64,000 bases of DNA from Mustelus asterias (lineage: Eukaryota): positions 11,966,001-12,030,000 of the forward strand of contig NC_135825.1 of assembly GCF_964213995.1 (NCBI RefSeq). Reading direction: 5' to 3'. The position numbers were made by a program, and so were the translations under genes. Each line of letters begins with the position of its first letter. The first letter of the stretch is position 1. The notes beneath the pieces are model-generated. The model saw nothing but the letters and a program-made list of their open reading frames with translations, made no database searches and was not told where the DNA came from. Shown in pieces: positions 2,502-59,724 of this stretch.

Positions 2502-2542
2502 ATTTTATTGTCTAACACGAAACTCTCGACAGAAAGGAGAGT

Positions 2543-6518: not shown

Positions 6519-6583
6519 ATTTTTTGTATATATGTAGTCTGTTTTCGCACCCCGCCGGCCTTTGTTTTCAAAGGAGGGGTGAA

Positions 6584-6857: not shown

Positions 6858-7200
6858 GGCTGTCACACTGAAAGATCACTGAAAGATTTCCCTCACGTAG
6901 CTAAGCAAAGAAATGACTTGGGGCGGAACTTTCCCATCCCATCCACATTGTGAATCGTAGCGGGTGGGACAGAGAATTTCTCAGACCATTTAAAAGGTCC
7001 GTTGACCTGAGACAGGAACTTCCAATCTTGGGGTGTACACAGCCAAAACAATCCCGCCCTTGGTCTTAAACAGATCTTCATGATCCTATTGAATGGTGGA
7101 GCAGACTCGATGGGCTGAATGGCCTACTCCTGTTCCTATTTCTTATTGACTTATGGTCTCTATCATTCCAAACCCATGTTAGTTTCACTTCCTCCAGAGT

Positions 7201-7268
7201 TCACAGGGTTATTTGTTGTTTCCGAACAACAGCAACAACTTCAATATTCTTCCATGTTGAATACATCT
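7201..7268 (-). CDS. Gene A putative last (cytoplasmic) exon, (E)MYSTWKNIEVVAVVRKQQITL*
   Basis: Acceptor ttctaatag, in frame with the phase-1 end of the TM exon, 125-nt intron; no independent support. Confidence 0.35.
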
Positions 7269-25200: not shown

Positions 25201-28200
25201 CTGTTACATTATTTTTTGCCCACAAGGCACTTGGAGCTGAAAAGACAACAGATTAAAAATTGAACTGAAAATAATTGCTCAATACAAACAGATATATTTC
25301 AATAGGATTTACCACTGTGTTCAGAAAAATCTCTCCAATACATCTTCTAATGCAATAAAATACTTCCTTGTTTGATATCGTTGGGCTCAGTGAATATGTG
25401 CTTCCTGCGGATTGATAATTAGACAACCATATTGAGATTGTATAGTAAGACCTTTATAAAGCAAGACCTTGAGAGGTTTTATTAATCTTTTAGACCTGGT
25501 GGAGTTCTGTAGTGCTCACCATAAACATGTGGTAATTCTTTATTTTCATTTTGTACTATAGAAGCACAGTCCCTTCACAGCTGGCTCCTGGAGTTATTAT
25601 ATTCTCATACAGCAATTGTCAGACAGCAGATTGTCTGCTCAGGGTCACATTGCTCTTGGAGAGAGCTTATTGCTCACAAATTGGTGCTGAGCTTCCTACA
25701 TCACAACAATGGCTCTGAATCAGTTCCAGCATTGACCAGAACTGACTGTTAAAGCGAAAAAAAAATGCAATACTATTTTTATTAAAATTGCTTTGAACGA
25801 CCAACAGAACTAAACCCGTGAGCAATTCAGACAGACATTAATTTAAAAATTAGTTGAATTTTTTGAAGCTTAAAGTGATATTTACCAATGTTGCTGATTT
25901 GTGTTAAGTAACTGCAATCATTCTCTGAAATGTGGATCACTGACACTGTAACCATTTCACTGGATTTTTCTCCCTGGTGATTTGAGGCTGTGCAGTAATA
26001 TTGATGATGTTGCTGTTTGAAGGATTGACAATGTAGATCCAGTTTATTGGTGTCAGAGATGTTTGAGTCTTCAGGTGGGGTCTTTTCATACCATGTGTAC
26101 TGAATGGGAAGTGATCCCTGATCAGACTCACAGGAGACAGACATTGAGCCCCCAGAACATGAGGCATTTGGTGGTGATAGAAATTTAAGCTCAGGAACAG
26201 ACACGGGTTCTGTGGGAAAAAGACAATCATTAATGGATTTTCACAGTAACTTCATTGCAGTGTTAATGTAAGCCTACTTGTGACACTAATTTTAAAAATC
26301 TTCAAATTTAAACATTAAAATTTTGAATTTAGAATGACTAAAAATTAAATAATTTCATATTACTAATATTTCTACACCTCAACCAGGGTGTGAGGAGGAA
26401 GAGAAAGTGTTAGATGGAGAGAGAGATGGCAGTGGGAGCTTGGCCGAATGCAGGTAGTATCTATTTATTGCTTTCATGGACAGCAGATATCCATGATAGC
26501 AGATTAGATAGCAACAAGCATTGAAGTGTGACCTGAGATAGAATGTGAGTGTTTAGAAATAGAAACCTTACAATGCAGAAACAGGCCATTCGGCCCATCA
26601 AGTTTGCACCGACCACAATCCCACCCAGGCCCTACATCCCTACACTTTACCTGCTAATCCCTCTAACCTACGCATCTCAGGACAGTAAGGGGCAATTTTA
26701 GCATGGACAATCAACCTAACCCGCACATCTTTGGACAGTTGGAGGAAACCGGAGCACCCGGAGGAAACCCACGCAGACAAGAGGAGAATGTGCAAACTCC
26801 ACACAGACAGTGACACAAGCCGGGAATCGAACCCAGGTCCCCGGAGCTGTCAAGCAGCAGTGCTAACCACTGTGCTACCGTGGCGCCCCACGGTTTGCTG
26901 AGATAACGGAGACTTAGATATCTTTTTAACAATCGAATCTTGAACTGAATTCTCTGATATCGAGTGATCCACCCCCGCTGCCAGTTGGAATAGGGAAATT
27001 GGGGATCAGCAAAATCTCCATTCAAAGCAGCGGGACTGGATAATTCCAGCTGCGGACGGGTTCGGTGAATTCCGGCCATTGTTTGCATTTGTATTTAACA
27101 TTTAACAGTAAGTACCATTTAACATTTAAGTGTGAATACTATTTCAAGTCGAGGGCGGGGTTTTATGGCCTCGAATGCGCGAGACTGGAAAATCCCATCC
27201 AATGTCAACAGACATTTCCGTTGTCTGCCCCACACCTGCTCCGATACCATGGCGGGCGAGGCAGTAAAATTCCGACGTAAGTATCATCCAAAGGGCATGA
27301 GCTGGGAGATAGAAGCTATCCACTGGCAGTAACTGGAACAGTTAATTGGGGAAACTGGTTTGAACTGGTCTTTTTGTACTGAGTCCCTTTGTTTTTGAAC
27401 ATATAAATTCAGGCATTCTCAGTGCAACCAGCACTGGAGTCTGACTCCGACCGACTCTGGAGGTTTAATGAGCTGAAGGAATTTACTACAGGGGAAGAAG
27501 TGAGTTGTTGGTGAGTATCTGGTGAGTATCCGGGAAGTGGTCAAGGTCTATTGTCCAGGCATCGGGAGCAAGGGTGGGGTCCTTGCCAACTTGTTAACCA
27601 GGAGTGCGGGTTCCAAGGTGCAATAAATCTGACTCCATCTCTCTGGATCATTACTCTGGGCCTCTGAATTACAATTCCTCCAACATGATCATTGTGCTAA
27701 CTGCCCTCTAGCTGCCAGACTCTGCACTGCTGCGGAGCCTCGGGATATCGGAGCTGTCAATGTCTCCTCCCAGATAAAGCACCGATCAGACATTTCAGTC
27801 ACGAGTAATAAAGATAATCACTGAGAACAATGTACCGTCAGATATTTGTAGCTTTACAGGAAATATTGAAAGGAAGCCGGGCTTATCAATTCCACAGCTG
27901 TACCATCCTGCATCTCCTGAGTGAAGATCCTCCATAGTAACAACAAATAATCCTTGTGTCTTGTTATCTGTGATCGACATTCTCCCTCGCTGTCCATCTG
28001 GATCGTCTGATTTTACCAAAACAGAGCACTGATGACTCCAAGATTTCACATGTGACTGGGACAATTTGTCATAGTGACAATCTATAGTGATCGATCTTCC
28101 CAAAACTCCTGTTACATTATTTTTTGCACACAATGCACTTGGAGCTGAAAAGACAACAGGTCAAAAATTGAACTGAAAATAATTGCTTAATACAAACAGA

Positions 28201-31200
28201 TATACTTCAATAGGAATTACCGCTGTGTTCAGAGAAATCTCCATTACATCTTCCAATGCAATTGAATACCTCCTTGTTTGAGATGTTGGGAACATTAATA
28301 TCACAGGTGGAATTTTCCAGAAAAAATACAAATTGTCAGGTTGGGACTGAAAACTGGTAATTTTCTCTCCAGAAAGACAGCCAGGTTTTCCCACCAGATC
28401 CCCCGACATTTACCCCAAAAAATCAGGGGGCGTGGCCTGTGCTGTCACTCTGATGGGGCGGGGCCTGATTGAGCTGGCAAGGCCGTCTCCATAGAGATTT
28501 GGGCACCATTTTTAAAGTTGATGTGAACTTTCAGATAGAGACCCCCCCCCCCCCCCCCCCACCCACCCCAACACTGCCACAGATATCAGGCCCCACCCCG
28601 TGGACATCAGGACCCCCAGTGAACAAGGGGGCCACCTCTCACATAGAGGGTGATCCTCCCCTCAACATCCTACCACTCAAAGGTTAGGGCACTCCACCTA
28701 TTCCGCAGAAGGGTCAGGGTGACCAACTCCAGCCCATCTCCACCATCATTGTGGCATTCCCACTCCAACCCCCACAGCAACAATGCCCAAGCCCCCAATT
28801 CACAGTCTCAACCCCAATGCAGACACAAACTCCCCCCGCCCCTACTACCCACAGACAGGAGGCCCCACCCCATAGACATCGGGGCCCCCAGTAGACACGG
28901 GGAACAGTATTCCAAAGAAGGTCCACGGAATTCTCCCCAGACCTGGGGAAAGCTTATCTCTCAAACAGCAATTTTCAGACAGCAGATTGTATGCTCATGA
29001 TCACATTGCTCCTTGAGGGAGCTTATTGCTCAGAAATTGGTGCTGAGCTTCCTACATCACAACAATGGCTCTGAATCAGTTCCAGCATTATCCAGAACTG
29101 ACTTTAAAACTGTCCTGAAGTTGTGAAAAGCGAAATAAAATGCAATTCTATTTTTATTAAAATTGCTTCGTGCAATAGCACTAAACCCGTGAGCAATTCA
29201 GACAGACATTAATTTAAAAATTAGTTGTAATTTTTGAAGCTTAAAGTGATATTTACCAATGTTGCTGATTTGTGTTAAGTAACTGCAATTCTTCTCTGAA
29301 ACGTGGATGACTGACACTGTAACCATTTCACTGGATTTTTCTCCCTTGTTATTTGAGGCTGTGCAGTAATATTGATGATGTTGTCGTTTGAAGGATTGAC
29401 AATGTAGATCCAGTTTATTGGTGTCAGATATCTTTGAATCTTCAGACGGGGTCTTTTCATACCATGTGTACTGAATGGGAAGTGATCCCTGGACAGACTC
29501 ACAGGAGACGGACACTGAGCCCCCAGAACATGAGGCATTTGGTGGTGATAAAAATCTAAGTTCAGGAACAGACACGGGTGCTGTGGGAAAGAAACAAACA
29601 TTCAGAAACTGACTGAACATCTAAAAATCAAACACTCTGTGAATTTCAGCTCATCAACCTCTCATTCAGGGTCAGTCATGTTGCAATCTCACCAACACAT
29701 CCAGCTCTCCATATCTCTCCATCCTCCAAGCAGCCTGAACTACAACGTCTGCTATTATATCAGAACATCGCAGCTCTCCAGATCGGACCATGAAGCATGA
29801 GCTAAAGATTTAAATTAATTGGTGAATGGATTAGAGGAGATTTGGGGAGATTGGTTATTTCACTTGGGGGGATGTTGAGGGCCTGGAACTCACTGCCTGG
29901 AAGAATGGTAGAGGGTGGAAGAGGCGGATAGCCTGATTACATTAAACAAAATGGAATAAACTTGAGATGCTGCAACCTACAGAGCTCTGGATCAAGAACT
30001 GGATGGTGGGATTAGATTGGATTGCTTGTTCAGTCAACCCAGTGGGGCACAGTGGCACAGTGATTAGCACTGCAGCCTCACAGTGCCAGGGACCCGGATT
30101 CAATTCCAGCATTGGCTGTGTGGTCAGTGTGGAGTTTGCACGTTTTCCCCGTGTCTGCGTGGCTTTCCTCTGGGTGCTTCAGTTTCCTCCCACAACCAAA
30201 GATATGCAGATACCCACGGGGAGGTGATGGCCCAGTGGTGTTATCGCTCGCCTATTAATCCAGAATCTCATCTAATGTTCTGGGGACCAGGGTTCGAATC
30301 CCGCCATGGCAGCAGTTGGAATTTGATTTCAATAAAGAAAATCTGGAATTAAGAATCTACTGATCACCATGAAACCATTGTCGGTTGTTGGAAAACCCAT
30401 CTGGTTCACTCATGTCCGTTAAAGAAGGAAATCTACCATCCTTTCCTGGTCTGGCCTACATGTGATGTCAGAGCCAAAGCAATGTGGTTAATTCTTGACT
30501 GTCCTCTGAAATGGCCTCACAAACCTCTCAGGATGGGCAACAAATGCCACCCAGCCAGCGATGCCTATGTCCACAAATGAATAAAACAAATACTGGCACC
30601 TCCCACCAGGCACCAAGCAGTGCCAAAGTGGGTGGTGCTAGCGTGGGTGGGTGGCATTCTGGGGTGTGTGGCCTATTGGGGGCTCAATGAGTTGGGGGGT
30701 TTTCAGTGACACTGTGCACTGGGATCAGTGGGAGAGGGAGAGAGGAGGGGGATCAGGGCTGGCCATCTGGGTGGGGGGAGATCGGGGCTGGCCCGGGAGA
30801 GCTCTGGTAGGCCAGTGGTTGGATGGTTGTGGGGGGTCGGGATGGCCAGCGATCGGGAGGCCAGCGGTGAGGGGGCCAGTGTGCATGCGCCACTCTCCAC
30901 GGTGACAGATCGGTGTGTGTGCAGTGGCTCACTCAGCAATACGCTGCCGGCCTCTCCAGTGGGATTTGGACCCGCCGATCACATTTCAGACGGAATCACT
31001 CTGTCTTGGAGAATCGTTCTGGTCCGGCCCTAATATTGTTAAATGAGCCTCTTCAGACACTGGAGTTGCAACACATCAAGGAAGCTGATCAGGAAACATG
31101 TACTCCCTGTGTTGTGGGATAGCCCGTCAGTGAGCTGCTTGTCTCTGTTCATTCCTTTGTCTTGTGGAGCTCAGGGTCTGTGTGGAGGAGGCAGTTGCTG

Positions 31201-34200
31201 CTATTGGTCACTTGGGTCCTTAAGGGTGAAAAATATACAGACAGGTACACATAAGAGCCTGGCACACTGTCACCTGGGAAAGAGACATGAAACAGGCACT
31301 GACTTTCAGTACAGACAGCCACCTGAGATTAAATCAGAAAGGACAGACAGCTATTCAAAGTTGAGCATGCAGGAATCAAATCCTGCTGGTAGCCAGCCAG
31401 GGCTGAGGTACTCTTAAGGATAAGGACAATAGGGTTGGATAATGAGATTCGCTGCAGGTGGGATCGGGAATACATAACTGCAGGAAAACCAATTACTGTA
31501 AATTACTGTCTGAATAGACCGAAACTAAAACCATTGATGGTCACTGATGTAGGAAATATATCCATTCATAGAACAATGCGATGTTAACATGGTTATGTCT
31601 GTATCTGTCTGTGTTAATGATCGATCACCTACTTGATTACAATGATGTGATAATGGCTAGATGTCCGGTCCGTCTATTGTGTAAAGGGTATAAAGATGGA
31701 CTGCTCCTATTGTCTCATTGAGAGAAGGTTTGCTGCTTGTTAGTGCCTTTTCTCCATGAAGCTTCGTTAAAATAAAACTATTCTTGAAACCTTCAAACCT
31801 GACTCAGTGGTACATTTCCCACAACAATTGGCACAGTCGGCATGGATCCTATTACTGGTGAGATCGATTGGCCACGATCGGAGCCGGGGTAGAGATCACT
31901 GAATCTGTGAGTGTCAGACAAGGTCAAGAATACAGTTTGCAAGGGGTTAATCTTAAGGGGTTAAACTTAAGGGGTATTTGTAGTGATAAGTTTTGTTGTA
32001 TATGATATACTGATAAGTACTAACTGCTGATAGTGATAAGTAACTGTTGCTTGTGCTCACACTGCCTTTGACCAGCTGTTAAGAGGAGGAACCTCCCACA
32101 CGAAGGCCAGGAGATTGAAGTGGGTAAAGAGACACCAAGGGCACTTAGGATTGTGAAGCACAAGTGGCAGAGTTCGGTTAACATCAAACTCTGTCGTGGC
32201 GAACAAACGCAGAGTTGCCATCTGATTGCATGAAAGTTTGGAAAGTTGGGAACTGTACTGTCAATGTTGTGAAAAGCGGGGCAGAAAAGGAGCTTGATCA
32301 TCTCTGACCTAAACCGGACTCCGGTGGAGAAGCACCTTGCCGAGGTGGTAATAGTGGAAGCTGTGAGTATAACTTGAAACCCTGTAACGGTAGTGAAACA
32401 CGGTGCTAGAGTAGTAATAGTGGCCGGGGGTAGCGAAGTCCCTACGGTAGAGAGCACACTTTACTAGGGAGTAATCATGGCCGGGGCTAATGAAGTCTGC
32501 AAAATAGCAGATAATGAAGTTAAAAGGGGACCTGCAGGTTCTCTCTTTGAAATTTACATGACAGACAGGAAAGAGTTAATAAAGAGAATGCAAAAGGATG
32601 GCTGGGATGCGTCTCAGACCTTAGAGCAGCAGAGAAAGTGGATAGATAAAGAAAAGAGAAACAAGACAAAGAAGATAGGAGTAATGTTAACACATCAGTT
32701 AGCTGGTCTAATTGAGCAAGTAGTCGCCTCTACTAAGAAGTGGAGTGAAGATAAGGAAAGGATTGGAGAATTAGAATCCCGAGTGAGGGAACTGGAAAAG
32801 CAAAACGAGGTTTTAGAAGAAAAGCAATGGCGAGAGGAAACTGTTCCTCTACCTCCTTATGAGTCCACACAGCAGGGACCAACCGCTCCTTCAGATGAGT
32901 GGGAAGCGCTAGAACACAACGTAGTGCCAGTACCCCGAGGGGGAACAAATGCACGACTAAAGGCAACTTATCAACCCTTCACCCCAGGTGAGAGACAGCA
33001 GATAATGGCTTCCCTGGGTAAATTACAACCGAGAAGCACAAACACTAAATTCTGGGAAGAATTAGACACAATCTGGATAGGACACCAATTACACCTTAGA
33101 GACGTACACCAGCTGGTCAGGGCAGCCTGTCCAACGGATAAGTGGAGGCAGGTAGCAGGTGGACCCGCCGCTCCTCCAGCACAGGATTATAACAAGGGAC
33201 GGTGGACACATGCAGTCGCCCTAACATCGGAGATAGATGCCCAACCTTTACCCAGTTTAAAGCAGAGATTCAGAGGGTATTAGGGAATGCTCCCACCAAC
33301 TGGAGCAGAATTACCACAACAAAACAGTCAAAATGGGAAGGAGCTTCTGAATACGGGGAACGATTGTTCCAGGTATATCAAGAGTGCTCAGGACAAGGGA
33401 ACCCAGGTCGAGGGGATCGAGCGTTCATCCAGGCTTTTAAGAATGGACTCTCCAGCGCTCACCAGGTCATCCTAAAAATGGGAGTGATTATGTCCCAAGA
33501 TTACGCTGAGTTGGTAGAGTGGGCTAGCGGAGTACCGGGAGAAGAGAAATCCCAGGCAAGAACAAGGCTGGAAAGAGTAGCAGCCTACAGTAATGGGAAT
33601 GGAACAAAGTCTAAACTGACTTGCTACAATTGTGGCCAGCGAGGACACTTTGCGAGGGATTGCGGGACTCCACGGAAAGGGAACAGATTTGGGAACAGTG
33701 GGAAACATTGCAGCCACTGTAATAAATATGGACACACAGAAGCAGCGTGTTGGAAGAAGCATGGGAAACCCCCGACCCGATCCATGACCACAGCAGAACC
33801 GGAGGAACCACAGGACCTCCGGGGTCAGCAAGATTGACGGTCTGCAGCCCCCATTCACAAGGATAAGAAGGAGGGAAGGATTTACGTGTCAGTACTAGTA
33901 GGGGGCAGACAATGTGAGATGCTAGTGGACACAGGAGCGTCCATATCTGTCACCGACTTACCCTTACCCACTACAAATAAAATGATTTACCTGACCGGGA
34001 TAGGAGAGAACAAAACACCCGCCTACCTGAGCGAGACCACCTTAGTAGAGATAAATAATCTGTACATACCAATGAGGTTTTATGTGTGCAAAAATAACGA
34101 GGGTACAATAATGGGAAATGATCTGAAGAAAGAATATGAGATTCTGATAGACTGGAAAGGGAGAATTAATCTGGCCAAGACAGGACGGTCAGAAAACTAG

Positions 34201-37200
34201 AATAGGGAAACTTACAAGTCACCTCGAAACTATTAAGGTGGCCACAGTCACCACCAGAAATTGGGAATTAGAAACAGGAGGGTTCAGAGCCATCTGTGCC
34301 TCCGTCCCTGGAGTATGGGCTAAAACGAAGTTAGAAACCGGTTTGACTAAAACGGACTCAATAAAGGTCCCGGGACCGGAGCATAAGCCACACCGACAAT
34401 ATCCAATAAAACCAGAGGCAGAGAAAGCTGCAGTGGAGATAGTTAAAGGGTTAGTGGAAAGGGGGATTCTGAGAGAAACCACAAGCACCACTAACTCCCC
34501 AACATGGCCAGTGAGCAAGCCTGACGGAAGCTATAGGCTCACGATAGATTACACCGGACTCAATAAAGTCACGTCCAAATTGCACCCCATTGTAGCAAGC
34601 CCTTCGACAATCCTGAATGGACTGTACAGGAGCATAAAATATTCACAGTGTTGGACATAGCCAACGGATTCTGGTCCTTACCATTGGATCCTGAATCCCA
34701 AGACAAATTTGCCTTTCCAGTGGGAGGCAGACAGTACACTTGGAGTCGTTCACCACAGGGATTCCACAACAGCCCCGCTATATTCCATCGAGCAATGAGT
34801 GACATCCTGAACAGAGTAGAACTGCCAGAGGGTAGTAAGATCCTACAATATGTAGACAATATCCTGATAGCTTCGGAGTCCAAGTCAGGACATCAAGAAG
34901 CCTTATATTTAGTACTGAATGAATTAAAAGCCGCAGGGTTAAAGGTGAGCCCCAAAAAGGCACAAATCGGGAAAACACAGGTCCTATACCGAGGACGCCT
35001 TATATCCCAAGGACTTAAAGAAATGCCAACGGACCGAAAGAAGGCAATACAACAAATGCCGCGACCCATCACCGGAAGAGGGGTCAGAAAGATGCTCGGA
35101 CTATTCAACTACAGCCGGAGTTTCATCCCAGGGTTTGCAAAATTAGCAGAACCCATACAAAGACGAGTCAATGGGGGAAAACCAGCTTTAGATCCTGTAG
35201 AATGGGGACCTGAGCAGGAAGAGGCTTACACTAAACTAAAAACAGAACTGATATCAACCCCTGGACTAGGATTACCCGATTCTAATAAGGACTTCCATAT
35301 CCATTGTAGTAATGAGGGAGGGTTCTATTCCGCCATGGTAACACAAGACCATGGCGACAGAAAGAGATGATGTGGAGATGCCGGTGTTGGACTGGGGTAA
35401 ACACAGTAAGAAGTTTAACAACACCAGGTTAAAGTCCAACAGGTTTATTTGGTAGCAAAAGCCACACAAGCTTTCGGAGCTGCAAGCCCCTTCTTCAGGT
35501 GAGTGGAAATTCTGTTCACAAACAGAGCATATAAAGACACAAACTCAATTTACATGAATAATGGTTGGAATGCGAATACTTACAACTAATCAAGTCTTTA
35601 AGAAACAAAACAATGTGAGTGGAGAGAGCATCAAGACAGGCTAAAAAGATGTGTATTGTCTCCAGACAAGACAGCCAGTGAAACTCTGTGGGGGTTACAA
35701 ATAGTGTGCCATGAACCCAATATCCCGGTTGAGGCCATCCTCGTGTGTGCGGAACTTGGCTATCAGTTTCTGCTCAGCGACTCTGCGCCGTCGTGTGTCG
35801 CGAAGGCCGCCTTGGAGAACGCTTACCCGAATATCAGAGGCCGAATGCCCGTGACCGCTGAAGTGCTCCCCAACAGGAAGGGAACAGTGTTGCCTGGTCA
35901 TTGTCGAGCGGAGCACTTCAGCGGTCACGGGCATTCGGCCTCTGATATTCGGGTAAGCGTTCTCCAAGGCGGCCTTCGCGACACACGACGGCGCAGAGTC
36001 GCTGAGCAGAAACTGATAGCCAAGTTCCGCACACACGAGGACGGCCTCAACCGGGATATTGGGTTCATGGCACACTATTTGTAACCCCCACAGAGTTTCA
36101 CTGGCTGTCTTGTCTGGAGACAATACACATCTTTTTAGCCTGTCTTGATGCTCTCTCCACTCACATTGTTTTGTTTCTTAAAGACTTGATTAGTTGTAAG
36201 TATTCGCATTCCAACCATTATTCATGTAAATTGAGTTTGTGTCTTTATATGCTCAGTTTGTGAACAGAATTCCCACTCACCTGAAGAAGGGGCTTGCAGC
36301 TCCGAAAGCTTGTGTGGCTTTTGCTACCAAATAAACCTGTTGGACTTTAACGACAGAAAGAGACCCATAGGATATTATTCCACAGCAGAAGGGCCGGTAG
36401 TCACCGGACTGCCAAGTGCATAGCCGCCTTGGATTGCCCCACCTGGGCCGTAAAGGTGAGCGAGCCAGTAATCATGGCAGGGAATAGGACAGGAGACAAT
36501 TGGCAAACTGCCAATAGCAGCAACAGAACAGACAGGAGACGAAATACATATTCGGGACTTACATGAGGATACCCCAAAGGAGGAAAAGGAGAAATGGAAA
36601 GCACAGGGAGCAGCCAAAGGGACTGATAACATTTGGAAACGGGAAGATAAGGTAATAGCACCAGAGCGCATACAAAACACCCTATTGGAACTACACCATG
36701 GACTCTCACAAGTGGGTAGAGAGGCCATGATAACTAGTATAGGAAAGGAATGGTGGTGGAAAGGAATGGGAAGAGATATAGCCCGACACTGTCACCGATG
36801 CATGACGTGCGCGCAACACAACCCTGGTAGACCCATAAAATTTAAATGGGACACCAGCCGAGACCAAAGGGACCCTGGGAACATCTGCAATTATATTTCA
36901 CACGGCCACTACCACAATCCCATGGCAAAACTTATTGTCTGGTTATTATAGACCAGTTCACCAGGTGGGTAGAAGCATTCCCTACGACAAATTGTACTGC
37001 TACCACGGTGACTCGGATATTGGCAGAAGAGGTAATCCCTAGATGGGGTGTACCCCTGCAAATTGATTCGGACCAAGGGACGCACTTCACTGGAAAGCTG
37101 GTAAAATCAGTATGCCAATTAATGGGGATACAACAAAAATTTCACATCCCTTACCACCCACAGAGTTCTGGAATGGTGGAATGTATGAATAGAACACTGA

Positions 37201-40200
37201 AACATGCACTAGCTAAAGCCATACAAACATCGGGAAAAATGTGGACAGAGGTATTGCCCGCTATACTAATGAGATTAAGAGCTACCACAAACCGGACAAC
37301 CGGATTAACCTCTCATGAGCTAATGACAGGACGGGCGATGCAATTACCCGAAAGCATCGGAACAGGTGGGACCAATGTAGGTCCATTAAAGATAAAATCA
37401 GGAGATATGTTTTAGAACTGAGCACCCAACTAAAAGGGATGCGCAAATTGGTAAAGGGCAATCAGGAAATAAAAGACGCAGAGAGAGAGCTTGAAATGCT
37501 CCCTGACGTCCCAACAGCGGGAAGTCGAGTCCTAGTAAAAACATTACCTGACAAACCAGGGTTTGCACCAAAATGGAATGGGCCATATGAAGTTATAATT
37601 AGTGGAGACACCTGTGCCAGTATAGACATAAGAGGGAAAGGGGTCTGGAAACACTGGACACAACTAAAATTACACAAGGGAACAAATAAGTAATTAAATT
37701 GATGAACTAACGAAAATGCTTTCCTCAACACAGGCAAAGATTGCAAGCAAGAACGACTGGCGGGCGCGGGGTGATAGATAATATAACTTGTAAAGATTAT
37801 ATGAATTATAGTGTGAAGTTTGATGTTTGATCGTTGTGAATATGTATGTAATCGTGTATGTAACTGTACTACTTTGCGTTGTCGCGACTGTAAATTTGAC
37901 TGGATTGGTGGATAACTTGTTTTACAAAGCTCACATACATTTACACGGGAATCAAAGTGTATGTTACCCGCTAGCACAATCGGTCGAAGCCCTAATTGTA
38001 GCCACCCCTGGGTGGACCCCTCATGACTTATACACTGTAGATACATCAGATACACCCACTAAGGGACAAATTGGCAAATATAAAAGAGTTATACAGGGGA
38101 GATGTGTGGGACTTGTAAACCGCACAGATCCAACAGGTGGGAGGAAAAGCTTGTTCAGGTACTGCAAGCTATCCGCTTTGTTTTACGGGGCTGGGATGGG
38201 GATGTGCCGATGCCTTGGTCCCTAAGAATGATTCCTGCGTACAGACCCAGTGTGTCCATCAACATTGTCGGGTTAATAAGGGACTACTTGCACTTGTGAT
38301 GAACAGAAATGTCTGAATATAACCGCGGGAAGACAGCTTATTTGTGGACAATGCAATGGAACTCACGTAAGCTCAGACAAATGGACATACCCATTTGATA
38401 CTTACTAGGTGGTGGGATCAAATGGGGAGTCAAGTAAACCGAACAACTGGCAATATGAGCAAACTCATAATCAAGACACTAAATGTTACCGGGCTAAGAA
38501 GGGATATGTGTTGCTCTTCAATGGTACTTACATGACAGAAACACCAAACCTCCCAAACCGTTTTGCAGCAGGAACAATCGGACCACTGACTGTTCCATGC
38601 CCCCAGAAGGGGCATATTCGGAGGAGAATAGTAACTCGGGCTATCAGCAAAGAATGCTGCGCTGACTGGGAAGTTCTGGGCACAATGGGATCCTCACTGG
38701 GATATGGGTTCCTTGGAGCCTTATTTCTCGGCGTGGGGGGGCGTGGGGGTGGGGGGGTGGGGGGAGGGGCAGCAGAAGTGATTTGTGCAAAGAGTAGGAA
38801 TCATATTGTTTGTGGACTAACAGTCCTGGAGAACAACACTTCAAAAGCACTGGAGGCTGTTAACCACGAAATGGCTGAACTGAGATTATATGCACAACAG
38901 ACACGATATGCAGTGGACTATCAGTTAGCACAACAAGGGGGAGTGTGTACAATTATAGGCAATAAATGCAGAACCCATGTCACAGACGAGTCCTATAACA
39001 ATACACAGGTCATCAATAGCATCAGAGAACAACTTGATAGCTTCAGACAGGGACCCAAGAAAGGAAGTAACTGGCTGGAATGGGTAGTGGGGGGGTCCTG
39101 GGAATCTTACTTATTACATGGATTGGTCATGCTCATTTCAATTGTAATTGCCTGTTGTCTAATTGTTGGATGCCTAAATGTCTGTTGCAAGGTGATGGTG
39201 ACTAGAATTGTGCCAGGAGCCAGTGTATACATCGAAGAAGAAACCCCGATGAAGATCCCCGAAGACATCAGAAGAAGCGAAGAAGGAAAGAAGAAGAACA
39301 AAGAATTATACATATAAAAATTGTTGGTCTCAGGATTAGTGAAACTCATAATCCGACCAAAAGTGGGGACTGAAGTGGGAAAAATATACAGATGGGTACA
39401 CATAAGATGGCTGCCTGGCACACAAACAGTCACCTGGGAAAGAGACATTAAACAGGCACTGACTTTCAGTACAGACAGCCACCTGAGATTAAAACACAAA
39501 GAACAGACACCAATTCAAAGTTCAACATGCAGGAATCAAATCCTACAGGAAGCCAGCCAGGGCTTGAGGCACTCTTTAGGATAAGGACAATAGGTTGGAT
39601 AACGAGATTAGCTACAGGTGGGATCGGGAATACATAACTGCAGGAAAACTAATTACTGTAAATTGCTGTATGAACAGACTGAAACTAAAACCATTGATGG
39701 TCACTGACGTAGGAAATGTATCCATTCATAGAACAATGCAATGTTACCATGCTTATGTCCGTGTCTGTCTGTATTTGTCTATAACGATGTGTTAACGATC
39801 GATCACCTACTTGATTACAACGATGTGATAATGGCGAGATGTCCGGTCCATCTATTGTGTAAAGGGTATAAAGATGGACCGCTCCTATTGTCTCATTGAG
39901 AGAAGGTTTGCTGCTTGTTAGTGCCCTTTCTCCACGAAGCTTCGTGAAAATAAAACTGTATTCTTGAAACCTTCAAGCCTGACTCAGTGGTACATTTCCC
40001 ACAACAGTCCTCATCTGAAGCCCAAAATAAAACAGCCTGAGAACCACCCGTGCTGATCTGATAGATACAATCACCAAAATATAACCCAGAAATACACATT
40101 ACCACCACTCTCGTGAAAGACAACAACCTGTAACTACTGATATTAAACCTTTCACACAATCAGGCGAGAAATAAGCAGTGAGGTTCCAATGCTCCTTGGT

Positions 40201-43200
40201 ATCTTTCCCAGTCACTTCTTCAGCCTCCCCCATTGCCTCTGTCTTCTGCCCTTGCTCAGTAACCCGAGCAGCCACAGTTAGATTCCACTAATTGCACTCA
40301 CTGAGCGATTAATAGACTGAAATTGGCAACTCGTCTCTCACTGGGGGGATTTGATCACACACGGATTGACACATTTAAAGTTTCCTTGGAGATTTTTATG
40401 ATCATTTGGAACATTTGGAATACTTGTCCAATTCTGGTCACCACACAACCAGAAGGACGTGGAGGCTTTGGAGAGAGTGCAGAAAAGGTTTACCAGGAGT
40501 TGCCTGGTATGGAGGGTATTAACTATGAGGAGAGTTTGAATGAGCTGAGATTGTTCTCCCTGGAAAGACGGAGGCTGAGGGGCGACCTGATAGAAGTTTA
40601 TAAAATTATGAGAGGTATCGATGGGGTGAACAGCTGGAAGCTTTTTCCCAGGGCAGAAATGACAATTACAAGGGGGCACAAGTTCAAGATAATGGGGGAA
40701 AGGTTCAGTGGAGAAGTGCGGGGGAACTTTTTTACACGGAGGGTGGTGGGGGCCTGGAACGCACTCACAAGTGAGGTGGTTGAGGCAGTTACATTAGCCA
40801 CATTTAAGACTTATCTTGACAGACATATGAACAAACAGGGAATACAGGGATAAAAACGGTTGGTCTAGATAGATAAATGTGATCGGTGCAGCATGGAGGG
40901 CTGAAGGGCCTGTTCCTGTGCTGTACTGTTCTTTGTTCTTTGCTCTTTGATCCCTTTAAGGGGCTTTCACCATTTTGGATTATTTAATTGTGAAATTTGC
41001 CAATTTGTTAACTTTTAATCTGTCAGCTTCACCCTGCGTTTTCAGTGGTTTATTTGAAAGAAGCACAAACTGACGCATGTTGGGAGTTTGACTGGCTTCC
41101 CAACATATTGTCAATTTCTGTGTATTTAACCCCCTCTGTGCTCCCCCACCCACCCCCACAGCCCCACCATTCAGCGCTAAACCAAGAAGGTACAATTACT
41201 GCCAACTGGCTGCTCACTTCACTTTGTTAATGTCTGACTATTGGATTGATCCGGACTGTAAAAATCTGACAGTGTGATATTTAATACATTTCAGAGACAG
41301 GAAAATATTCTGAGCATCGCGGGTAATGTCTTTCACAATATCCTATAGTTAAAGGAATTGTTTGTCTGATTATGTTTGAAGTTCTTGGGCAGAATGTTGG
41401 ACAGGCCACGAATTGAGTTTGTGTCACAAGAGTCGGATTTCCAGATCTCTGCCCTCTGGCTGCCAGACTCTGCATTGCTGCAGAGCCTCGGGATATCGGA
41501 GCTGTCAATGTTTCCTTGCGGATAAAACATGGATCAGACATTTCAGTAATAAAGAAAGTCATTGAGAATAATGTACCGTAAGATATTTGCAGCTCCACAG
41601 TAAACTTTGGATCTGAGAAATATTTAACAATTCCACAGCGATAGAATCCTGCATCTTCTGTGTGAAGATCCTCCATCGTAACAGCAAATATTCCTTGTGA
41701 CTTGTTATCTGTGATCGACATTTTCCCTCGCCGTCCATCTGGATCATCCGTTCTCACTAAATATGAGCACCGTTCAGTCCAACCGTGACACCAATATTTC
41801 ACATATTCTTTGTATGTTCCATCATAATAGCAATTTATTGTAATCGATCTTCCCACAATTCCTGTGACATTCGTTTCTGCCCACAACGCACCTGAAACTG
41901 AGGAGACAACATTTCAGCAATTGACCAAGTAAATAACTGCTTAATGCAGAGAGAAACATTTTAATAAGATTTACCACTGTGTACAGAGGAAACTCTCCAA
42001 TATCTGTATTCATCATTCTCTTTCTAGTTTGTGATTAATGAAAACATGAATATAGAGCCGTGCTGTCAGTGCCAAAGTACTTCATTGACAATGATTTCTT
42101 GTTAATGTACAGTGGCCATTGTTATTGTGTCACCTTGTCACTCAAGCTTTGCACTGGCGCCTCTGAATGGGTGGATTGCAGGGTCAGGTCCCACTCCAGA
42201 GACTGGAGTATAAAACCTACACTAACATTCCAGTGTAATACTGAGGGACAAGATGGCTCAGATTTTCCTCCCCCCAGTCATGTTCACAGAGCTCGGTGAT
42301 GTCTTTCAGGTGAAAGGTTCATCTGACACCCAAGTCTGGACATTCCCTGTCATGGAGAAAATCCCGGGAATGGCTGGAATTTCGAAGCCCGGAGAGTGGG
42401 AGTGGGACTGCAATCGGGCTGGCATTCACACATACGCGATTCGTTCAACTCTGGATTGCCTTAAATTCATCATCTGCCTCGACTGAAGTGGGATTTTGGA
42501 TGAACAGAAGTGTGTGTGGAATCTGGATTGTGCAGATTAGAATATTGAAGAAAAGGTCTGAACTTGGTGGATTCTTATAGACAGTAAGAAGTTTAACAAC
42601 ACCAGGTTAAAGTCCAACAGGTTTATTTGGTAGCAAAAGCCACACAAGCTTTCGAGGCTCTGAGCCCCTTCTTCAGGTGAGTGGGAATTCTGTTCACAAA
42701 CAGAACTTATAAGACACAGACTCAATTTACATGAATAATGGTTGGAATGCGAATACTTACAACTAATCCAGTCTTTAAGAAACAAAACAATGGGAGCTGT
42801 TTGTGAACAGAATTCCCACTCACCTGAAGAAGGGGCTCAGAGCCTCGAAAGCTTGTGTGGCTTTTGCTACCAAATAAACCTGTTGGACTTTAACCTGGTG
42901 TTGTTAAACTTCTTACTGTGTTTACCCCAGTCCAACGCCGGCATCTCCACATCATTCTTATAGACAGCCAGGGTCCAACTTCTGGAGAGGGAAGTTACTC
43001 TTTGGAAGGGGAAAGTTTCTCTTTGACACAAACTCTGGTGAGCCGGTCAGGGCCGGAGTGATTATTCAGCTGTTTAAATTATTTTACTTATTAACCATGG
43101 CGCTGGGGCACAGAAACAGGCCTTGTGTCCACCTCACCTCCGGGCTGAGCAGCATGTGGATTTGTTCCCGGGTCGCCCGTCCCGACTCACTTTTTAATGC

Positions 43201-46200
43201 CTTTCCCGACTCAGTGAACACGGCCCAGGGACGGCAGTCTGGGCCTCAGTCTGCCCCACAGGTCAGTGCACCAGGAATGACACATTACTCAGGAAAAAGT
43301 GCAATGAAGATTCCCTGGAACATAGAACATAGAACATTACAGCGCAGAACAGGCCCTTCGGCCCACGATGTTGCACCGACCAGTTAAAAAAAAAAACTGT
43401 GACCCTCCAACCTAAACCAATTTCTTTTCGTCCATGAACCTATCTACGGATCTCTTAAACGCCCCCAAACTAGGCGCATTTACTACTGATGCTGGCAGGG
43501 CATTCCAATCCCTCACCACCCTCTGGGTAAAGAACCTACCCCTGACATCGGTTCCATAACTACCCCCCCTCAATTTAAAGCCATGCCCCCTCGTGCTGGA
43601 TTTCTCCATCAGAGGAAAAAGGCTATCACTATCCACCCTATCTAAACCTCTAATCATCTTATATGTTTCAATAAGATCCCCTCTTAGCCACCGCCTTTCC
43701 AGCGAAAACAATCCCAAATCCCTCAGCCTCTCCTCATAGGATCTCCCCTCCATACCAGGCAACATCCTGGTAAACCTCCTCTGCACCCTCTCCAAAGCCT
43801 CCACATCCTTCCTGTAATGTGGGGACCAGAACTGCACACAGTACTCCAAGTGCGGCCGCACCAGAGTTGTGTACAGTTGCAACATAACGCTACGACTCCT
43901 AAATTCAATCCCCCTACCAATAAACGCCAAGACACCATATGCCTTCTTAACAACCTTATCTACTTGATTCCCAACTTTCAGGGATCTATGCACACATACA
44001 CCTAGATCCCTCTGCTCCTCCACACTATTCAAAGTCCTCCCGTTAGCCCTATACTCAACACATCTGTTATTCCTACCAAAGTGAATTACCTCACACTTCT
44101 CCGCATTAAACTCCATCCGCCACCTCTCGGCCCAACTTTGCAACCTGTCTAAGTCTTCCTGCAAACTACGACACCCTTCCTCACTGTCTACCACACCACC
44201 GACTTTGGTGTCATCAGCAAATTTGCTAATCCACCCAACTATACCCTCATCCAGATCATTAATAAATATTACAAACAGCAGTGGCCCCAAAACAGATCCC
44301 TGAGGTACACCACTTGTAACCGCACTCCATGATGAATATTTACTATCAACCACCACCCTCTGTTTCCTATCCGCTAGCCAATTCCTGATCCAATTTCCTA
44401 GATCACCCCCAATCCCATACATCTGCATTTTCTGCAGAAGCCTACCATGGTGAACCTTATCAAACGCCTTACTAAAATCCATATATACCACGTCCACTGC
44501 CTTGCCCCCATCCACCTCCTTGGTCACTTTCTCAAAAAACTCAATAAGGTTAGTAAGGCACGACCTTACTAACCTTATTGGTTAAGGACTGGTTCCTGGG
44601 ATAAGGGGGTGGGATGGGAACAGGTTGAGTCCACAAGGTGCATATTTCCTGTCAGTTGGAAGAATCAGAGGTGATTGAATTGAAATGTGTACAATTCTGA
44701 AGGGGCTTGACAGGGTACATTTTGAGCATATATGTACCACCCTACCAGGGCTGGGCATTCTGCATCACAGGATCACAGTCTCGGAATAAAGTGACAGACA
44801 CGAAGGTTGAGATGAGGAGATTTTTATTCACCCAAGGTGTTGTGAATCCTTGGAATTCTCTGCACCAGAGATCTTTAGATGTTCGGTCTTGAAGGATATT
44901 AAACACAGAGATTTATACAATTTTTTGGTACCAACATAATCGAGGGGTATGGGGATAGTGCAGGAAATAAGAATTGAAGTTGGAGATCAGTGAGCATGTT
45001 GCTGAATGATGCAGCAGGCTCAAAGGGACAAAGGCCAACTCCTGCTCCTATTTCTAATGTTGATCTTGTGGAGGAGAGGTGGCAGTATGAATCAAAAATT
45101 CCATTGCAGACAGCATAATAGCATCAGTTTGGTATGGGGCTGGTGTGAAAATTTAGATTTACTTTGTTAAATGTTAAAGAATGAAAAGAAAATGATTCCA
45201 TCTTGGATGGACAAAGTAGACAAAGCATGTACAAGTGATTGGGTGGCACGTTGACACAGTGCTGAACACAGCTACGTCACTGCGCCAGGGACCCGGGTTC
45301 AATTTCAGCCTCGGCTGACTGACTGTGTGGAGTTTGCACCTTCACCCCATATCTGTGTGGGTTTCCTCTGGGTACTCCAGTTTCCTCCCACACTGCAAAG
45401 ATGTTCAGGTTACGTTGATTGGCCATGCTAAATTGCCCCTTATTGTCCCAAGATGTATAGGTTAAGAAAATTAATGAGGTAAATATGTGGCGTTACAGGC
45501 ATGGGTAACACGCTCTTTGGTGCAGACTCAATGGGCCGAATGGCCTCCTTGTGCACTGTAGGGATTCTCTGAAACAGAGTCACTGACAGAGATTGATAAA
45601 ACTTTCATCAGATGTAATTTAAATAATAGAAACAATTGCAAACTTGAGGAATATTTTCCTGGAGCCTTTGTTGCCTCTGCAGTCTTCAGAGTCAATTCAA
45701 TGAGCAATAATCTGCAATGGGTCACAGGCATCTCTCAACATTAGGGAGAGATAATTGGTTACATTTAGTGTAGGGGGCACCACTCCACAGGAATGGGGAA
45801 AGATGAGGAGGCAGATTTCTATAAACTACCACAGCCGCTCTGAGGATTGAACTCCTGCCATTGGAATCATTCCGAATTGCACTCCAAACAACTGAGCCAA
45901 TCAAACCCTCCAGTCTCCAGGATATATTGAGCATGAAACTACATTAACAAGTTAACTTTTACTGGACTGAAATGTGTTGCTTCTGCATTTTAATTGTATT
46001 AATCATATCGCTTTTTAACAAAAATAAATAGGTTAATTTATATTCACAATCAATAATGCCGTTTACTATTTGCTGGGTAAATATTTCTGTGGTACAATAC
46101 TATCAACAAAATAGCTACAAATATCACACGAATGTCATTAATTTATTTTTGCTGAGTTTTTGAAGCTTTACATGTCTCCAAGTATTTAAATATCTCTGCG

Positions 46201-46305
46201 GGATAAACCATGCACGAGACTTAATCTAACACTCATCATCTCGGGATCCAGTTTTGTCCCTTACTCACCAGGCAGAGAAAAGATGAAAAGAATCAGAATC
46301 CACAT
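7201..46305 (-). CDS. Receptor gene A (spliced, 16 exons): CD300/CMRF35/pIgR-like type-I receptor, leader + 6x(V + C2-like) + stalk + TM + short tail, about 1360 aa
   Basis: Exons joined by GT-AG introns in compatible phases; V exons have CD300/pIgR-type motifs (GRSITINC, KYWC, ITDNK, DAGxYxCGI); C2-like exons have YTWY and YYCTASN; neutral TM. Confidence 0.8.
7394..7482 (-). CDS. Gene A transmembrane exon, LIYIVLGVLGAILVVFAVSLLLYRRRIDK
   Basis: Acceptor ctctgtgtcacag, donor G|gtgagt; hydrophobic helix then RRR; phase 2 matches the stalk exon. Confidence 0.88.
7528..8497 (-). mobile_element. Decayed CR1-clade LINE 3' fragment
   Basis: Frameshifted RT and 3' remnants (RKQRMIVDG, RGELIE, RVVEAETL); boundaries approximate. 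Confidence 0.7.
9946..10024 (-). CDS. Gene A stalk exon, (V)GPENSCEVLTVSSMHSSIPNSKPAE
   Basis: Acceptor tttccttctttcag, donor AG|gtacg; phase 1 in, phase 2 out; Ser/Thr/Pro-rich. Confidence 0.8.
11205..11970 (+). mobile_element. Old LF-SINE-like element interrupted by a younger HE1-type SINE
   Basis: Core gctgacactcctgtgcagtactgaggaagtgctgcactgttggaggtgc and tail aaattggctgc...acaacagtgac recognised from memory; boundaries approximate. Confidence 0.45.
11380..11711 (+). mobile_element. tRNA-derived SINE (HE1/V-SINE type)
   Basis: A box TGGCACAGTGG, B box GGTTCAAATC, core tgtgtggagtttgcacattctccc, TTCTATG-type tail. Confidence 0.85.
12386..12709 (-). CDS. Gene A C2-like exon 6 (membrane-proximal, divergent 3' end)
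   Basis: 324 nt; cag acceptor, G|gtaagt donor; EPVSVPE...YYCTASN...NCSYVTQINNV. Confidence 0.9.
13920..14228 (-). CDS. Gene A V exon 6
   Basis: 309 nt; ttttcag acceptor, G|gtacat donor; APSALWAK...DAGWYSCG. Confidence 0.88.
14897..15220 (-). CDS. Gene A C2-like exon 5
   Basis: 324 nt, open, phase 1-1. Confidence 0.88.
16497..16805 (-). CDS. Gene A V exon 5
   Basis: 309 nt, open, phase 1-1. Confidence 0.88.
17475..17798 (-). CDS. Gene A C2-like exon 4
   Basis: 324 nt, open, phase 1-1. Confidence 0.88.
19081..19389 (-). CDS. Gene A V exon 4
   Basis: 309 nt, open, phase 1-1. Confidence 0.88.
19889..23080 (+). mobile_element. 5'-truncated CR1-clade LINE, present in one array unit only
   Basis: RT motifs KSPGPDG, NYRPVSLTS, GVPQGSVLGP, FADD; TGTTCTA-type tail; other units are empty here (cattgaccagaac). 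Confidence 0.92.
20794..21814 (-). mobile_element. Second CR1-clade LINE fragment nested antisense in the first
   Basis: (AGAACAA)n tail at 20794; minus-strand RT C-terminus; host reading resumes at caaaggcaaatcg. Confidence 0.9.
23248..23571 (-). CDS. Gene A C2-like exon 3
   Basis: 324 nt, open, donor G|gtaact. Confidence 0.88.
24243..24340 (+). mobile_element. Short 3' SINE fragment, unit-specific
   Basis: HE1-type tail ggccgaatggcctccttctgcactgtaggg plus A-run; absent from sister units. Confidence 0.75.
24928..25236 (-). CDS. Gene A V exon 3
   Basis: 309 nt, open, phase 1-1. Confidence 0.88.
25886..26209 (-). CDS. Gene A C2-like exon 2
   Basis: 324 nt, open, phase 1-1. Confidence 0.88.
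26554..26889 (-). mobile_element. HE1-type SINE, unit-specific
   Basis: A/B boxes and core on the minus strand; absent from sister units. Confidence 0.85.
27836..28144 (-). CDS. Gene A V exon 2
   Basis: 309 nt, open; W>C change near the N-terminus (ALCAK). Confidence 0.88.
29257..29580 (-). CDS. Gene A C2-like exon 1
   Basis: 324 nt; acceptor tttctttcccacag, donor G|gtaaat. Confidence 0.9.
30218..30585 (+). mobile_element. DeuSINE (SacSINE1-like) element
   Basis: tRNA-like head (GGTTCGAATCC) and Deu-like core ggaaatctaccatcctttcctggtctggcctacatgtg, recognised from memory. Confidence 0.6.
31829..31847 (+). promoter_or_regulatory. ERV primer-binding site, tRNA-Ser-like
   Basis: TGGCACAGTCGGCATGGAT versus the expected Ser PBS TGGCG(T/C)AGTCGGCAGGAT, 2 nt after the LTR. 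Confidence 0.7.
32477..33837 (+). pseudogene. gag: ERV gag (one frameshift near 33250)
   Basis: PPPY-like motif LPPY; two knuckles CYNCGQRGHFARDC and CSHCNKYGHTEAAC. Confidence 0.85.
35462..35506 (-). ncRNA. Minimal hammerhead ribozyme motif (mirror copy)
   Basis: Reverse complement of the motif at 36272-36317. Confidence 0.6.
36272..36317 (+). ncRNA. Minimal type-I hammerhead ribozyme motif
   Basis: cac-CTGAAGA-a-GGGGC ttgca GCTCC-GAAA-GCT-T-gtg: core boxes, stem II, palindromic helix III, short helix I. Confidence 0.65.
37842..39317 (+). pseudogene. env: ERV env (frameshifted SU, open TM subunit)
   Basis: Signal-like MYVIVYVTVLLCVVA; basic site RRRIVTR; ISD-like QQTRYAVDYQLAQQGGVC-X6-C; TM helix. 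Confidence 0.88.
40411..40941 (+). mobile_element. CR1 3' fragment shared by both arms
   Basis: LFSLERRRLRGDLIEVYK; mirror at about 60381-60912. Confidence 0.85.
41577..41897 (-). CDS. Gene A exon 2, N-terminal V domain (V1)
   Basis: 321 nt; acceptor gtctcctcag; VSGALWAE...KYWCHGWTERC...DAGFYRCGI; keeps the extra C-C' cysteine pair typical of CD300/pIgR. Confidence 0.92.
42585..42953. mobile_element. Short Penelope-like fold-back insertion, left arm only
   Basis: 14-bp TSD ATTCTTATAGACAG at 42571-42584 and 42954-42967; inverted 3' ends; empty site near 56574-56587. Confidence 0.88.
42815..42860 (+). ncRNA. Minimal hammerhead motif (mirror copy at 42640-42685, minus)
   Basis: cac-CTGAAGA-a-GGGGCT cag AGCCTC-GAAA-GCT-T-gtg. 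Confidence 0.62.
43316..44585 (-). mobile_element. 5'-truncated CR1 LINE, left arm only
   Basis: Open 371-aa RT ORF at 43412-44527; GAACATA-type tail; empty site near 55868. Confidence 0.92.
45241..45570 (+). mobile_element. Older HE1-type SINE shared by both arms
   Basis: A/B boxes and core; mirror at about 54883-55212. Confidence 0.8.
46269..46305 (-). CDS. Gene A exon 1, leader MWILILFIFSLP
   Basis: Kozak-like acaATG; 37 nt; strong donor G|gtgagt; splices in frame to VSGALW. Confidence 0.88.
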
Positions 46306-53899: not shown

Positions 53900-53936
53900 A
53901 TGTGGATTCTGATTCTTTTCATCTTTTCTCTGCCTG
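53900..53936 (+). CDS. Paralog B exon 1, leader MWILILFIFSLP
   Basis: Same as the gene A leader; donor G|gtgagt. Confidence 0.85.
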
Positions 53937-59402: not shown

Positions 59403-59409
59403 GTTTCAG

Positions 59410-59724
59410 GTGCATTGTGGGCAGAAATGAAAGTCACAAGAATTGTGGGAAGATCGTTCTCAATAAATTGCAGTTATGATGGAAAATACAAACAAAACGT
59501 GAAATATTGGTGTCACGGTTGGACTGAACGGTGCTCACATTTAGTGAGAACGGATGATCCAAATGGATGGCGAGGGAGAATGTCGATCACAGATAACAAG
59601 GCACAAGGAATATTTGTTGTTACGATGAAGGATCTTCGCTCAGGAGATGCAGGATTGTATCGCTGTGGAATTGATACACCTGGCCTTGATCCAAAGTTTT
59701 TGTTGGAGCTGCAAATATCTTACA
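59410..59724 (+). CDS. Paralog B exon 2, V domain (predicted new acceptor)
   Basis: GALWAEMKVTRIVGRSFSINC...KYWCHGWTERC...DAGLYRCGI; open frame; weak donor A|gtatat. Confidence 0.75.

Follow-up and report, generated by a model that had tools for sequence, protein, structure and literature searches.

Fast amino-acid change and signs of patchwise conversion in the first V domains of MDIR/CD300-like receptor genes of a shark

Introduction

Why should two head-to-head receptor genes differ far more in one exon than in the introns that adjoin it? The question is raised by a 64,000-nucleotide stretch of the Mustelus asterias genome (the window, to which positions refer unless C25 is named), which forms an inverted duplication (37328-49038 against 64000-51173) and carries the first V exons (V1) of two MDIR/CD300-like receptor genes, A and B. 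A first-pass annotation had pointed to this contrast, and had offered as its cause either diversifying selection on the ligand-binding domain or conversion from other paralogs.

MDIR2 and MDIR5 of the clearnose skate were reportedly described by Cannon et al. in 2006. In the portion of PMC3031540 available, MDIRs are presented as a multigene family with activating and inhibitory members and with CD300, TREM and pIgR as relatives. The literature searched, with most subscription papers outside it, yielded no study that examines the V domains of shark MDIRs for selection or conversion.

Results

A and B are members of an MDIR-like gene cluster

A genome search located 59 related V exons in a cluster at C25:11.87-12.78 Mb, of which 54 (50 distinct) were examined, the five weakest matches being left out. 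Ten exons are of the V1 type and belong to genes named A, B, G2, G3-G7, G8 and G10; those of G3-G7 lie 0-2 nt apart, and G3 represents the five in our counts. All seven V1 genes checked (A, B, G2, G3, G5, G8 and G10) possess their own leader exon, and database models that fuse these genes therefore probably merge separate ones. The fused models, proteins of 1,250-1,460 residues, join several genes, each with its own leader and transmembrane exon, and draw their C-termini from repeat or antisense sequence. The V1 exons of the G3 group, G8 and G10 match database proteins labelled Mustelus asterias letter for letter, and A's or B's V1 was present in none of the database proteins fetched.

Gene A consists of a leader, V1, six C2 and five V2 exons, a stalk, an uncharged transmembrane exon and a tail, all open (Table 1), while gene B has eleven C2 and ten V2 exons, with transmembrane and tail exons near-identical to A's. 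The immunoglobulin domain totals are thus six V and six C2 in A, and eleven V and eleven C2 in B. A conserved stretch at 41894-42002 was considered as a leader and rejected, as it is intronic; the true leaders are found further upstream, 4.4 and 5.5 kb from the V exons.

Table 1. Positions of the features discussed, in window coordinates except where C25 is given
Feature	Position	Strand	Details
Gene A V1 exon (CD300-type V-set domain)	41577..41897	-	acceptor CTCAG/TTTCAGGTG, donor ACG/GT; Pfam V-set
Gene A leader exon	46269..46305	-	sequence MWILILFIFSLP
Gene B leader exon	53900..53936	+	same sequence as A leader
Gene B V1 exon	59410..59724	+	donor ACA/GTATAT; usable solely from AG at 59408-59409
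Gene A ectodomain array	12384..29580	-	6 C2-type and 5 V2 exons, all open
Gene A stalk, uncharged transmembrane and first tail exons	1094..10025	-	9948-10025, 7395-7484 and 1094-1147, respectively
Gene A last tail exon	C25:11964910		IVYASV, VTYATL; just beyond window
39-nt tract identical in A and G2	41605..41643	-	candidate conversion tract; G2 exon C25:12305752-12306072 (+)
Gene A FG (CDR3-like) loop	41608..41628	-	residues 88-94, VKYFSDP; limits from model; derived state
Gene B FG loop	59673..59693	+	DTPGLDP; ancestral type
LINE at B V1 acceptor, 1.6 kb	57795..59407	+	reverse-transcriptase frame 57808-59325; GTTTC on both sides
LINE in intron 1 of A, 1.25 kb	43314..44564	-	absent from B and G8
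Endogenous retrovirus, intron 2 of A	31213..40006	+	antisense to gene; same insertion site in B, G10
B copy of provirus	61317..64000	-	extends past window
B intron 2 zone of paralog tree flip	60020..60350 (approximate)	+	putative crossover or conversion border

ITIM-like tails inhibit, and transmembrane arginines recruit activating adaptors. An uncharged transmembrane exon and a tail with tyrosine motifs (IVYASV/VTYATL) are found in A, B, G3 and G10, and an arginine-bearing transmembrane exon in G2 and G4-G8, accompanied by a short tail in G2 and G8; a search for the stalk exon of G2 did not locate one. A, B, G3 and G10 are accordingly predicted to be of the inhibitory type, and G2 and G4-G8 of the activating type. 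The idea that G2, G8 and G4-G7 encode soluble decoys was dismissed in view of these arginine-bearing exons.

The features that define MDIRs are present in this cluster. The V domains are of the CD300/pIgR type with a C-C' cysteine pair (C34/C41 in A and B), they are mixed with C2-type modules, and the multigene family includes members with inhibitory motifs and members with charged transmembrane segments. In pairwise BLAST, A's V1 shares 51% identity with skate MDIR2 (E 2e-40), A's C2 70% with MDIR5, A's transmembrane segment 52% with MDIR2, and the arginine-bearing segment of G2 56% with MDIR5. The skate proteins likewise combine V and C2 modules and have a leader beginning MWI, yet the arrays of shark genes A and B are far longer. 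True pIgR consists of tandem V domains only and is a single-copy gene. The alternating V and C2 exons and the 59 V exons of the cluster rule out that identity here; 'pIgR-like', as found among the database proteins, is the label of the source.

The five near-identical V1 genes G3-G7 occupy C25:12122354-12268705 at a spacing of ~36.5 kb. G3 ends in an ITIM-type transmembrane segment and tail, and G4-G7 have an inhibitory-type stalk followed by an arginine-bearing transmembrane exon, so that G4-G7 are apparently chimeras produced by unequal crossing over. The tails of A, B and G10 are cut short in their last exon by a stop immediately behind VTYATL, whereas G3 reads on; in a white shark homolog the tail extends ~30 residues past the VTYATL site. 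In all V2 exons of the window (13918-28147) a short deletion has removed the first of the two C-C' cysteines, and the KSW/KYW position varies (H or Y/S). Directly behind A's V exon, in intron 2, the stretch 41449-41547 is conserved in V2 units and in reads of other sharks, and is a possible regulatory or splicing element.

The V1 exons of A and B diverge beyond their introns

A and B differ at 38 of 315 nt in the V1 exon (12.1%) and at 43 of 1031 sites in the adjoining introns (4.2%; p = 3e-6 for exon against intron). At the protein level, 27 of 104 codons differ from ALWAE on; the first-pass annotation had given the same 27 differences over 102 residues. The FG loop, which it described as replaced, does read IVKYFSDPK in A and IDTPGLDPK in B, and the leader exons are indeed the same (0/37 differences). 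Its description of the adjacent introns as nearly the same holds for their sequence but not for their structure, as each gene carries a different LINE. The longer downstream intron differs at 52/1570 sites (3.3%) and the first C2 exon at 14/327; further downstream the two genes differ by just 1-3%, in a part of the gene whose history is other than that of the V1 exon.

Amino-acid change exceeds silent change across the V1 family

For the A/B V1 pair (Nd 32.5, Sd 4.5) dN was 0.150 and dS 0.064. The nonsynonymous excess gave a one-sided Fisher p of 0.047-0.011 for kappa 1-4, and maximum likelihood gave an omega of 2.8-3.0 with p values of 0.063 and 0.050, borderline for the pair alone. For C2 the ratio was 0.6. 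Removal of the five loop codons left 11.0% nonsynonymous against 4.3% silent and 4.2% intron divergence (p 2e-5), so the excess extends past the loop.

Across six V1 lineages, the minimum numbers of changes were 68/232 nonsynonymous, 14/86 silent and 120/1318 in introns, and pN/pS exceeded 1 in all 15 V1 pairs. When the pairs A-G8 and B-G3 were pooled, 53 nonsynonymous and seven silent differences were counted (ratio 2.3-2.8, p 0.014-0.003), A against G8 alone contributing 31 and four. The control exon sets gave pN/pS values of 0.73 (V2, 28 exons), 0.63 (C2, 17) and 0.96 (V3, 8). Among five lineages, nonsynonymous density was 0.237 in V1 and 0.077 in C2 (p 2e-6), with silent densities of 0.117 and 0.112. 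Silent density over six lineages stood mildly above that of the introns (0.164 vs 0.091, p 0.036); within the 63 V1 codons whose amino acid is invariant, silent changes numbered 4/51, which equals the intron rate. By lineage, the excess was strongest in A (10/321 vs 6/1318, p 2e-4) and G10 (17/321 vs 12/1318, p 3e-6).

Neutral simulations that took in doublet mutations, CpG effects and conversion never reached 68 nonsynonymous changes at the intron rate (0/600 per setting, in three settings); when run at the total rate of the exon, they gave a silent share as low as the observed one in 0.5-1.3% of cases. The family-wide M0 omega was 1.9 (p 0.063), and the comparison of M2a with M1a gave a likelihood ratio of 38.8, a value inflated by recombination and multi-hit codons.

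Amino-acid change in V1 thus runs about three times faster than change in the surrounding non-coding DNA, and omega exceeds 1 in the distal but not the proximal domains, as in other paired receptors, with the A/B pair alone borderline. The comparison proposed in the first-pass annotation, of dN/dS with intron divergence, showed neither an exon divergence equal to that of the introns (12.1% vs 4.2%) nor a dN/dS below 1 (2.3-3.0). The diversifying selection it suggested is borderline for A and B by themselves (maximum-likelihood p 0.05-0.06) and clear family-wide, and selection by a ligand or pathogen is likely.

Among the loops, FG alone is enriched in changes

The changes were mapped on an AlphaFold model of A's V1 with a pLDDT of 96.2, an earlier model (11 sequences, pLDDT 49.5) having been discarded. 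Its best fold match is mouse CD300lf (PDB 6e47, 5ffl and 1zox; TM 0.90-0.92, 42-43% identity). The FG loop is enriched in changes both between A and B (5/27, p 0.012) and over six lineages, where its seven of 104 residues hold 13 of 68 changes (p 6e-4). The changes are not limited to binding loops: no enrichment was seen in BC, CC' or C'-D, the CC' loops of A and B do not differ at all, and beta strands hold 10 of the 27 A/B changes.

The loop of A recurs in one activating-type paralog

The IVKYFS loop of A (as a 26-nt pattern) occurs at exactly two places in the genome, A itself and G2, a paralog 300 kb away with an arginine-bearing transmembrane exon. Among 207 V-domain loops of shark and ray homologs (117 proteins, searched by regular expression) none was of A's type and 62 were of the IxxPG type, to which B belongs. 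By this comparison, A's loop is derived and B's IDTPG is the ancestral elasmobranch type, and a novel CDR3-like loop is shared by a predicted inhibitory-type gene and a predicted activating-type gene.

That the loop exists exactly once more in the genome, in a gene with an arginine-bearing transmembrane segment, points to microconversion. At 43 of 63 diagnostic sites G2 agrees with its flank sister G3, but at seven consecutive loop sites it agrees with A (p 0.006, in a triplet test that was picked after the loop had been seen and that counts sites of one codon as independent). The pairwise GENECONV-like run between A and G2 was not significant (13 sites, p 0.16), and the sole run to stand out among 15 pairs was B-G2 (16 sites, p 0.002 uncorrected). 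A 39-nt tract identical in A and G2 is the candidate for the exchange between inhibitory- and activating-type V domains that marks paired receptors (p 0.006 by triplet, 0.16 pairwise); the near identity of G3 and G4-G7 fits conversion too, but recent duplication explains it as well. No other template for A's loop was present within two mismatches in the 504 kb examined, overlaps included. The derived codons TAT CGC at 83-84 are common to A, B, G2 and G3 and are not seen in A's flank relatives G8 and G10, which slightly favours the entry of a G2-type tract into A.

Conversion from other paralogs, the second cause put forward initially, is therefore upheld in part: A's loop is shared with G2, but the hint that B's IDTPG came from the IDKPG of the internal array is not sustained. 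B's loop codons are GGA ATT GAT ACA CCT GGC CTT GAT CCA, those of the array copy at 19082 are GGT ATT GAT AAG CCC GGC TTC CTT TCA, and the silent positions differ from the V2 array. As IxxPG is widespread in sharks and rays, the likeness reflects shared ancestry.

Reads from relatives were also placed on A, with non-A letters in the loop in two of four runs, and in one contig from a relative's run, guessed to be RNA, the V1 end was joined to C2-like letters; neither is evidence on A or B. A short-protein homolog search returned one match.

Mobile elements and lesions

The LINE at B's V1 inserted 4 nt past the original acceptor (AG ending at 57790). It fell inside a tandem acceptor, CAG TTT CAG (57791-59409), so that reading from the original acceptor now leads into the LINE, where a stop follows within five codons, while the second AG, which comes after the tail of the LINE itself, is predicted to give an in-frame exon two residues shorter. 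In B's third V2 exon (C25:12044421-12044734) adjacent stops, TGA TAG, stand where other copies read W-Y; the exon could be skipped, as its splice sites look intact and it is phase-symmetric. B is also changed at the near-invariant G10 and T17, and together with the acceptor LINE and the double stop this suggests that part of B's divergence may be decay.

The provirus in intron 2 measures 8.8 kb in A and ~4.6 kb in B. Its LTRs differ by 7-12% within one gene (88% identity in A, 93% in B), and the 3' LTR is 97% identical between genes; since the LTRs differ more within a gene than between genes, the provirus predates the duplications. At least 40 similar LTRs occur elsewhere in the genome. On the env side (37328-39363 against 61961-64000) A and B differ by 1.0% (21/2036), less than the LTRs (2.8%) and the introns (3-4%), which may reflect constraint or a recent conversion event linking the two inverted arms. 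A further LTR retrotransposon, at 2251-6857 in the intron after A's transmembrane exon, has LTRs 98.8% identical and long gag-pol frames (2516-6518); the insertion is young, and B has no such element at the corresponding spacing.

Heads and bodies of the genes have different relatives

In the vicinity of V1, A falls into one group with G8 and G10, and B joins G2 and G3; support for this grouping is modest, as it comes from ten sites in five close pairs. The picture changes about 0.5 kb into intron 2, beyond which A, B and G10 form a group of their own; these three share the proviral insertion, and G2, G3 and G8 are without it at that site. B is of the A/G10 type at 53 of 55 diagnostic sites from intron 2 position 600 on, and G8 switches from the A/G10 type to the G2/G3 type between positions 291 and 375. 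The head of A and its unique spacer are collinear with those of G8 at 95-98.5%, and the head-to-head block recurs at G8/G2. The head and body of G3, too, have different nearest relatives.

These relationships could have arisen if a head-to-head inhibitory/activating pair was duplicated and one crossover then took place between the inverted B and G8, inverting ~265 kb and swapping heads and bodies. We infer such a crossover as the simplest account of the tree flip, at about even chances; separate long conversions would leave the same pattern. Under a B/G8 head swap, B would carry the V1 of a lineage found mostly on activating bodies, which would help to account for the distance between the V1 exons of A and B, among the largest of all V1 pairs.

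Discussion

The divergence of the A and B V1 exons is in our judgement probably best explained by diversifying selection together with patchwise conversion in a paired-receptor cluster. Across the V1 family, amino-acid change exceeds silent, intron, C2 and V2 change. A pathogen or ligand that binds the CDR3/G-strand face may have driven the V1 changes, and A's 39-nt loop tract may have moved between A and G2 by microconversion, with a slight lean toward transfer from a G2-type gene into A.

If V1 exons, B's above all, were instead drifting free of selection, B's lesions, its changes at near-invariant G10 and T17, and the lack of A and B V1 from the fetched database proteins would fall into place, and the part of PMC5701461 available reports that constraint is relaxed in SIGLEC11/16 exons that underwent conversion. 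Drift, however, caps nonsynonymous change at the neutral rate, and the observed rate is about three times that of the introns; the lineage excess is strongest in A and G10, A's exons are all open, and A and G8 differ by the 31 nonsynonymous and four silent changes given above. We regard decay as an unlikely account, largely refuted already for the family, though it may hold for B's private changes. Just as unlikely is that the V1 exons did not accelerate and are simply older than their introns, either because conversion homogenised the flanks or because whole exons were imported. The reticulate history and the mildly raised silent density (p 0.036) speak for it, as do a few private alleles that match other V subfamilies over 15-31 nt (codons 6, 76 and 78 in A; 69 and 73 in B). 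But older exons should carry silent changes throughout, and the invariant codons change silently no faster than introns do (4/51), V1 and C2 have equal silent densities, 17 of 25 private A/B nucleotides share at most 3 nt with any V2, V3 or outgroup exon, and the 504 kb examined held no donor for A's loop within two mismatches.

A germline hypermutation targeted to the exon, such as AID-like tandem mutation, would raise all V1 changes, and 15 of the 38 exon differences do lie within 2 nt of another; the accessible text of PMC5931798 describes tandem changes made by shark somatic hypermutation. Silent sites should then rise as well, which they do not, and differences cluster in introns too (6/21 in intron 2), leaving this a very improbable cause. 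Conversion of B's loop from the internal V2 array, to which the protein-level resemblance of IDTPG to IDKPG had pointed, is hardly credible and in effect refuted, as B agrees with V1 both at silent positions and in the residues that come after PG, and IxxPG is common in sharks and rays. An assembly artefact, in which two haplotypes or base errors were set out as paralogs, deserves equally little credence. It could draw on the fact that none of the listed sequencing runs, with no RNA run among them, shares half of the window's words; yet A and B differ in LINE insertions and in C2 exon number (6 vs 11), the head-to-head block is seen again at G8/G2, G2 holds an exact copy of the loop, and the differences stay in frame and favour nonsynonymous sites.

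Selection with patchwise conversion has parallels in mammals. In the N-domain of primate CEACAM1/3/5/6, according to the excerpted text of PMC8860441, positive selection in a distal V-type domain goes with repeated conversion between paralogs, breakpoints lie at the end of the N-domain, and an activating decoy tracks the inhibitory receptor. That family is unrelated, and pathogen ligands and effects on binding have been shown for it in the same excerpts. The evolutionary pattern is also reported for PSG in the part of PMC7893922 available. CD300A/CD300C and SIGLEC11/SIGLEC16 are paired receptors whose ligand-binding exons are exchanged by conversion, as stated in the available portions of PMC12447643 and PMC5701461, respectively. 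The V1 exons of shark G3 (inhibitory type) and G4-G7 (activating type), 0-2 nt apart, resemble these cases as described in those portions; there, however, conversion mostly homogenises whole domains, whereas A and G2 share just ~39 nt around one loop, and the other members of the family diverge.

According to the accessible part of PMC6166816, mouse CD300lf uses its CDR3 and CC' loops to bind lipid (phosphocholine), metal and norovirus. The C-C' cysteine pair is found in shark V1 as well, and judging from spacing, the K-x-G-x-D-x-M of the CD300lf CDR3 in that same part of PMC6166816 may correspond to the K-P-G-x-D-P-K/M of the shark loop. Against this spacing, A's loop has its Gly replaced by Phe and keeps the Asp. 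Mouse CD300lf is a single-domain receptor, unlike the multi-domain shark genes.

A bolder reading, which we hold as tentative and rather doubtful, is that a 265-kb inversion swapped the B and G8 heads and that the new IVKYFS loop moved alone between A and G2, with G2 acting as a decoy for whatever exploits A. If true, specificity would have been rewired to signal in two ways in the midst of an arms race, CEACAM-style counter-evolution would extend to cartilaginous fish, and a defined five-residue switch would be at hand toward finding the first MDIR ligand.

Fast evolution of distal V domains along with conversion is well known in mammalian paired receptors, and a specialist would expect it. 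The value of the present case is that it documents the pattern for a cartilaginous fish, where C2, V2 and introns serve as internal controls. The locus is, moreover, a candidate case of a structural rearrangement that exchanges signalling polarity, and the natural loop-swap series of A, G2, G3, G8, B and G10 makes the question of the MDIR ligand testable.
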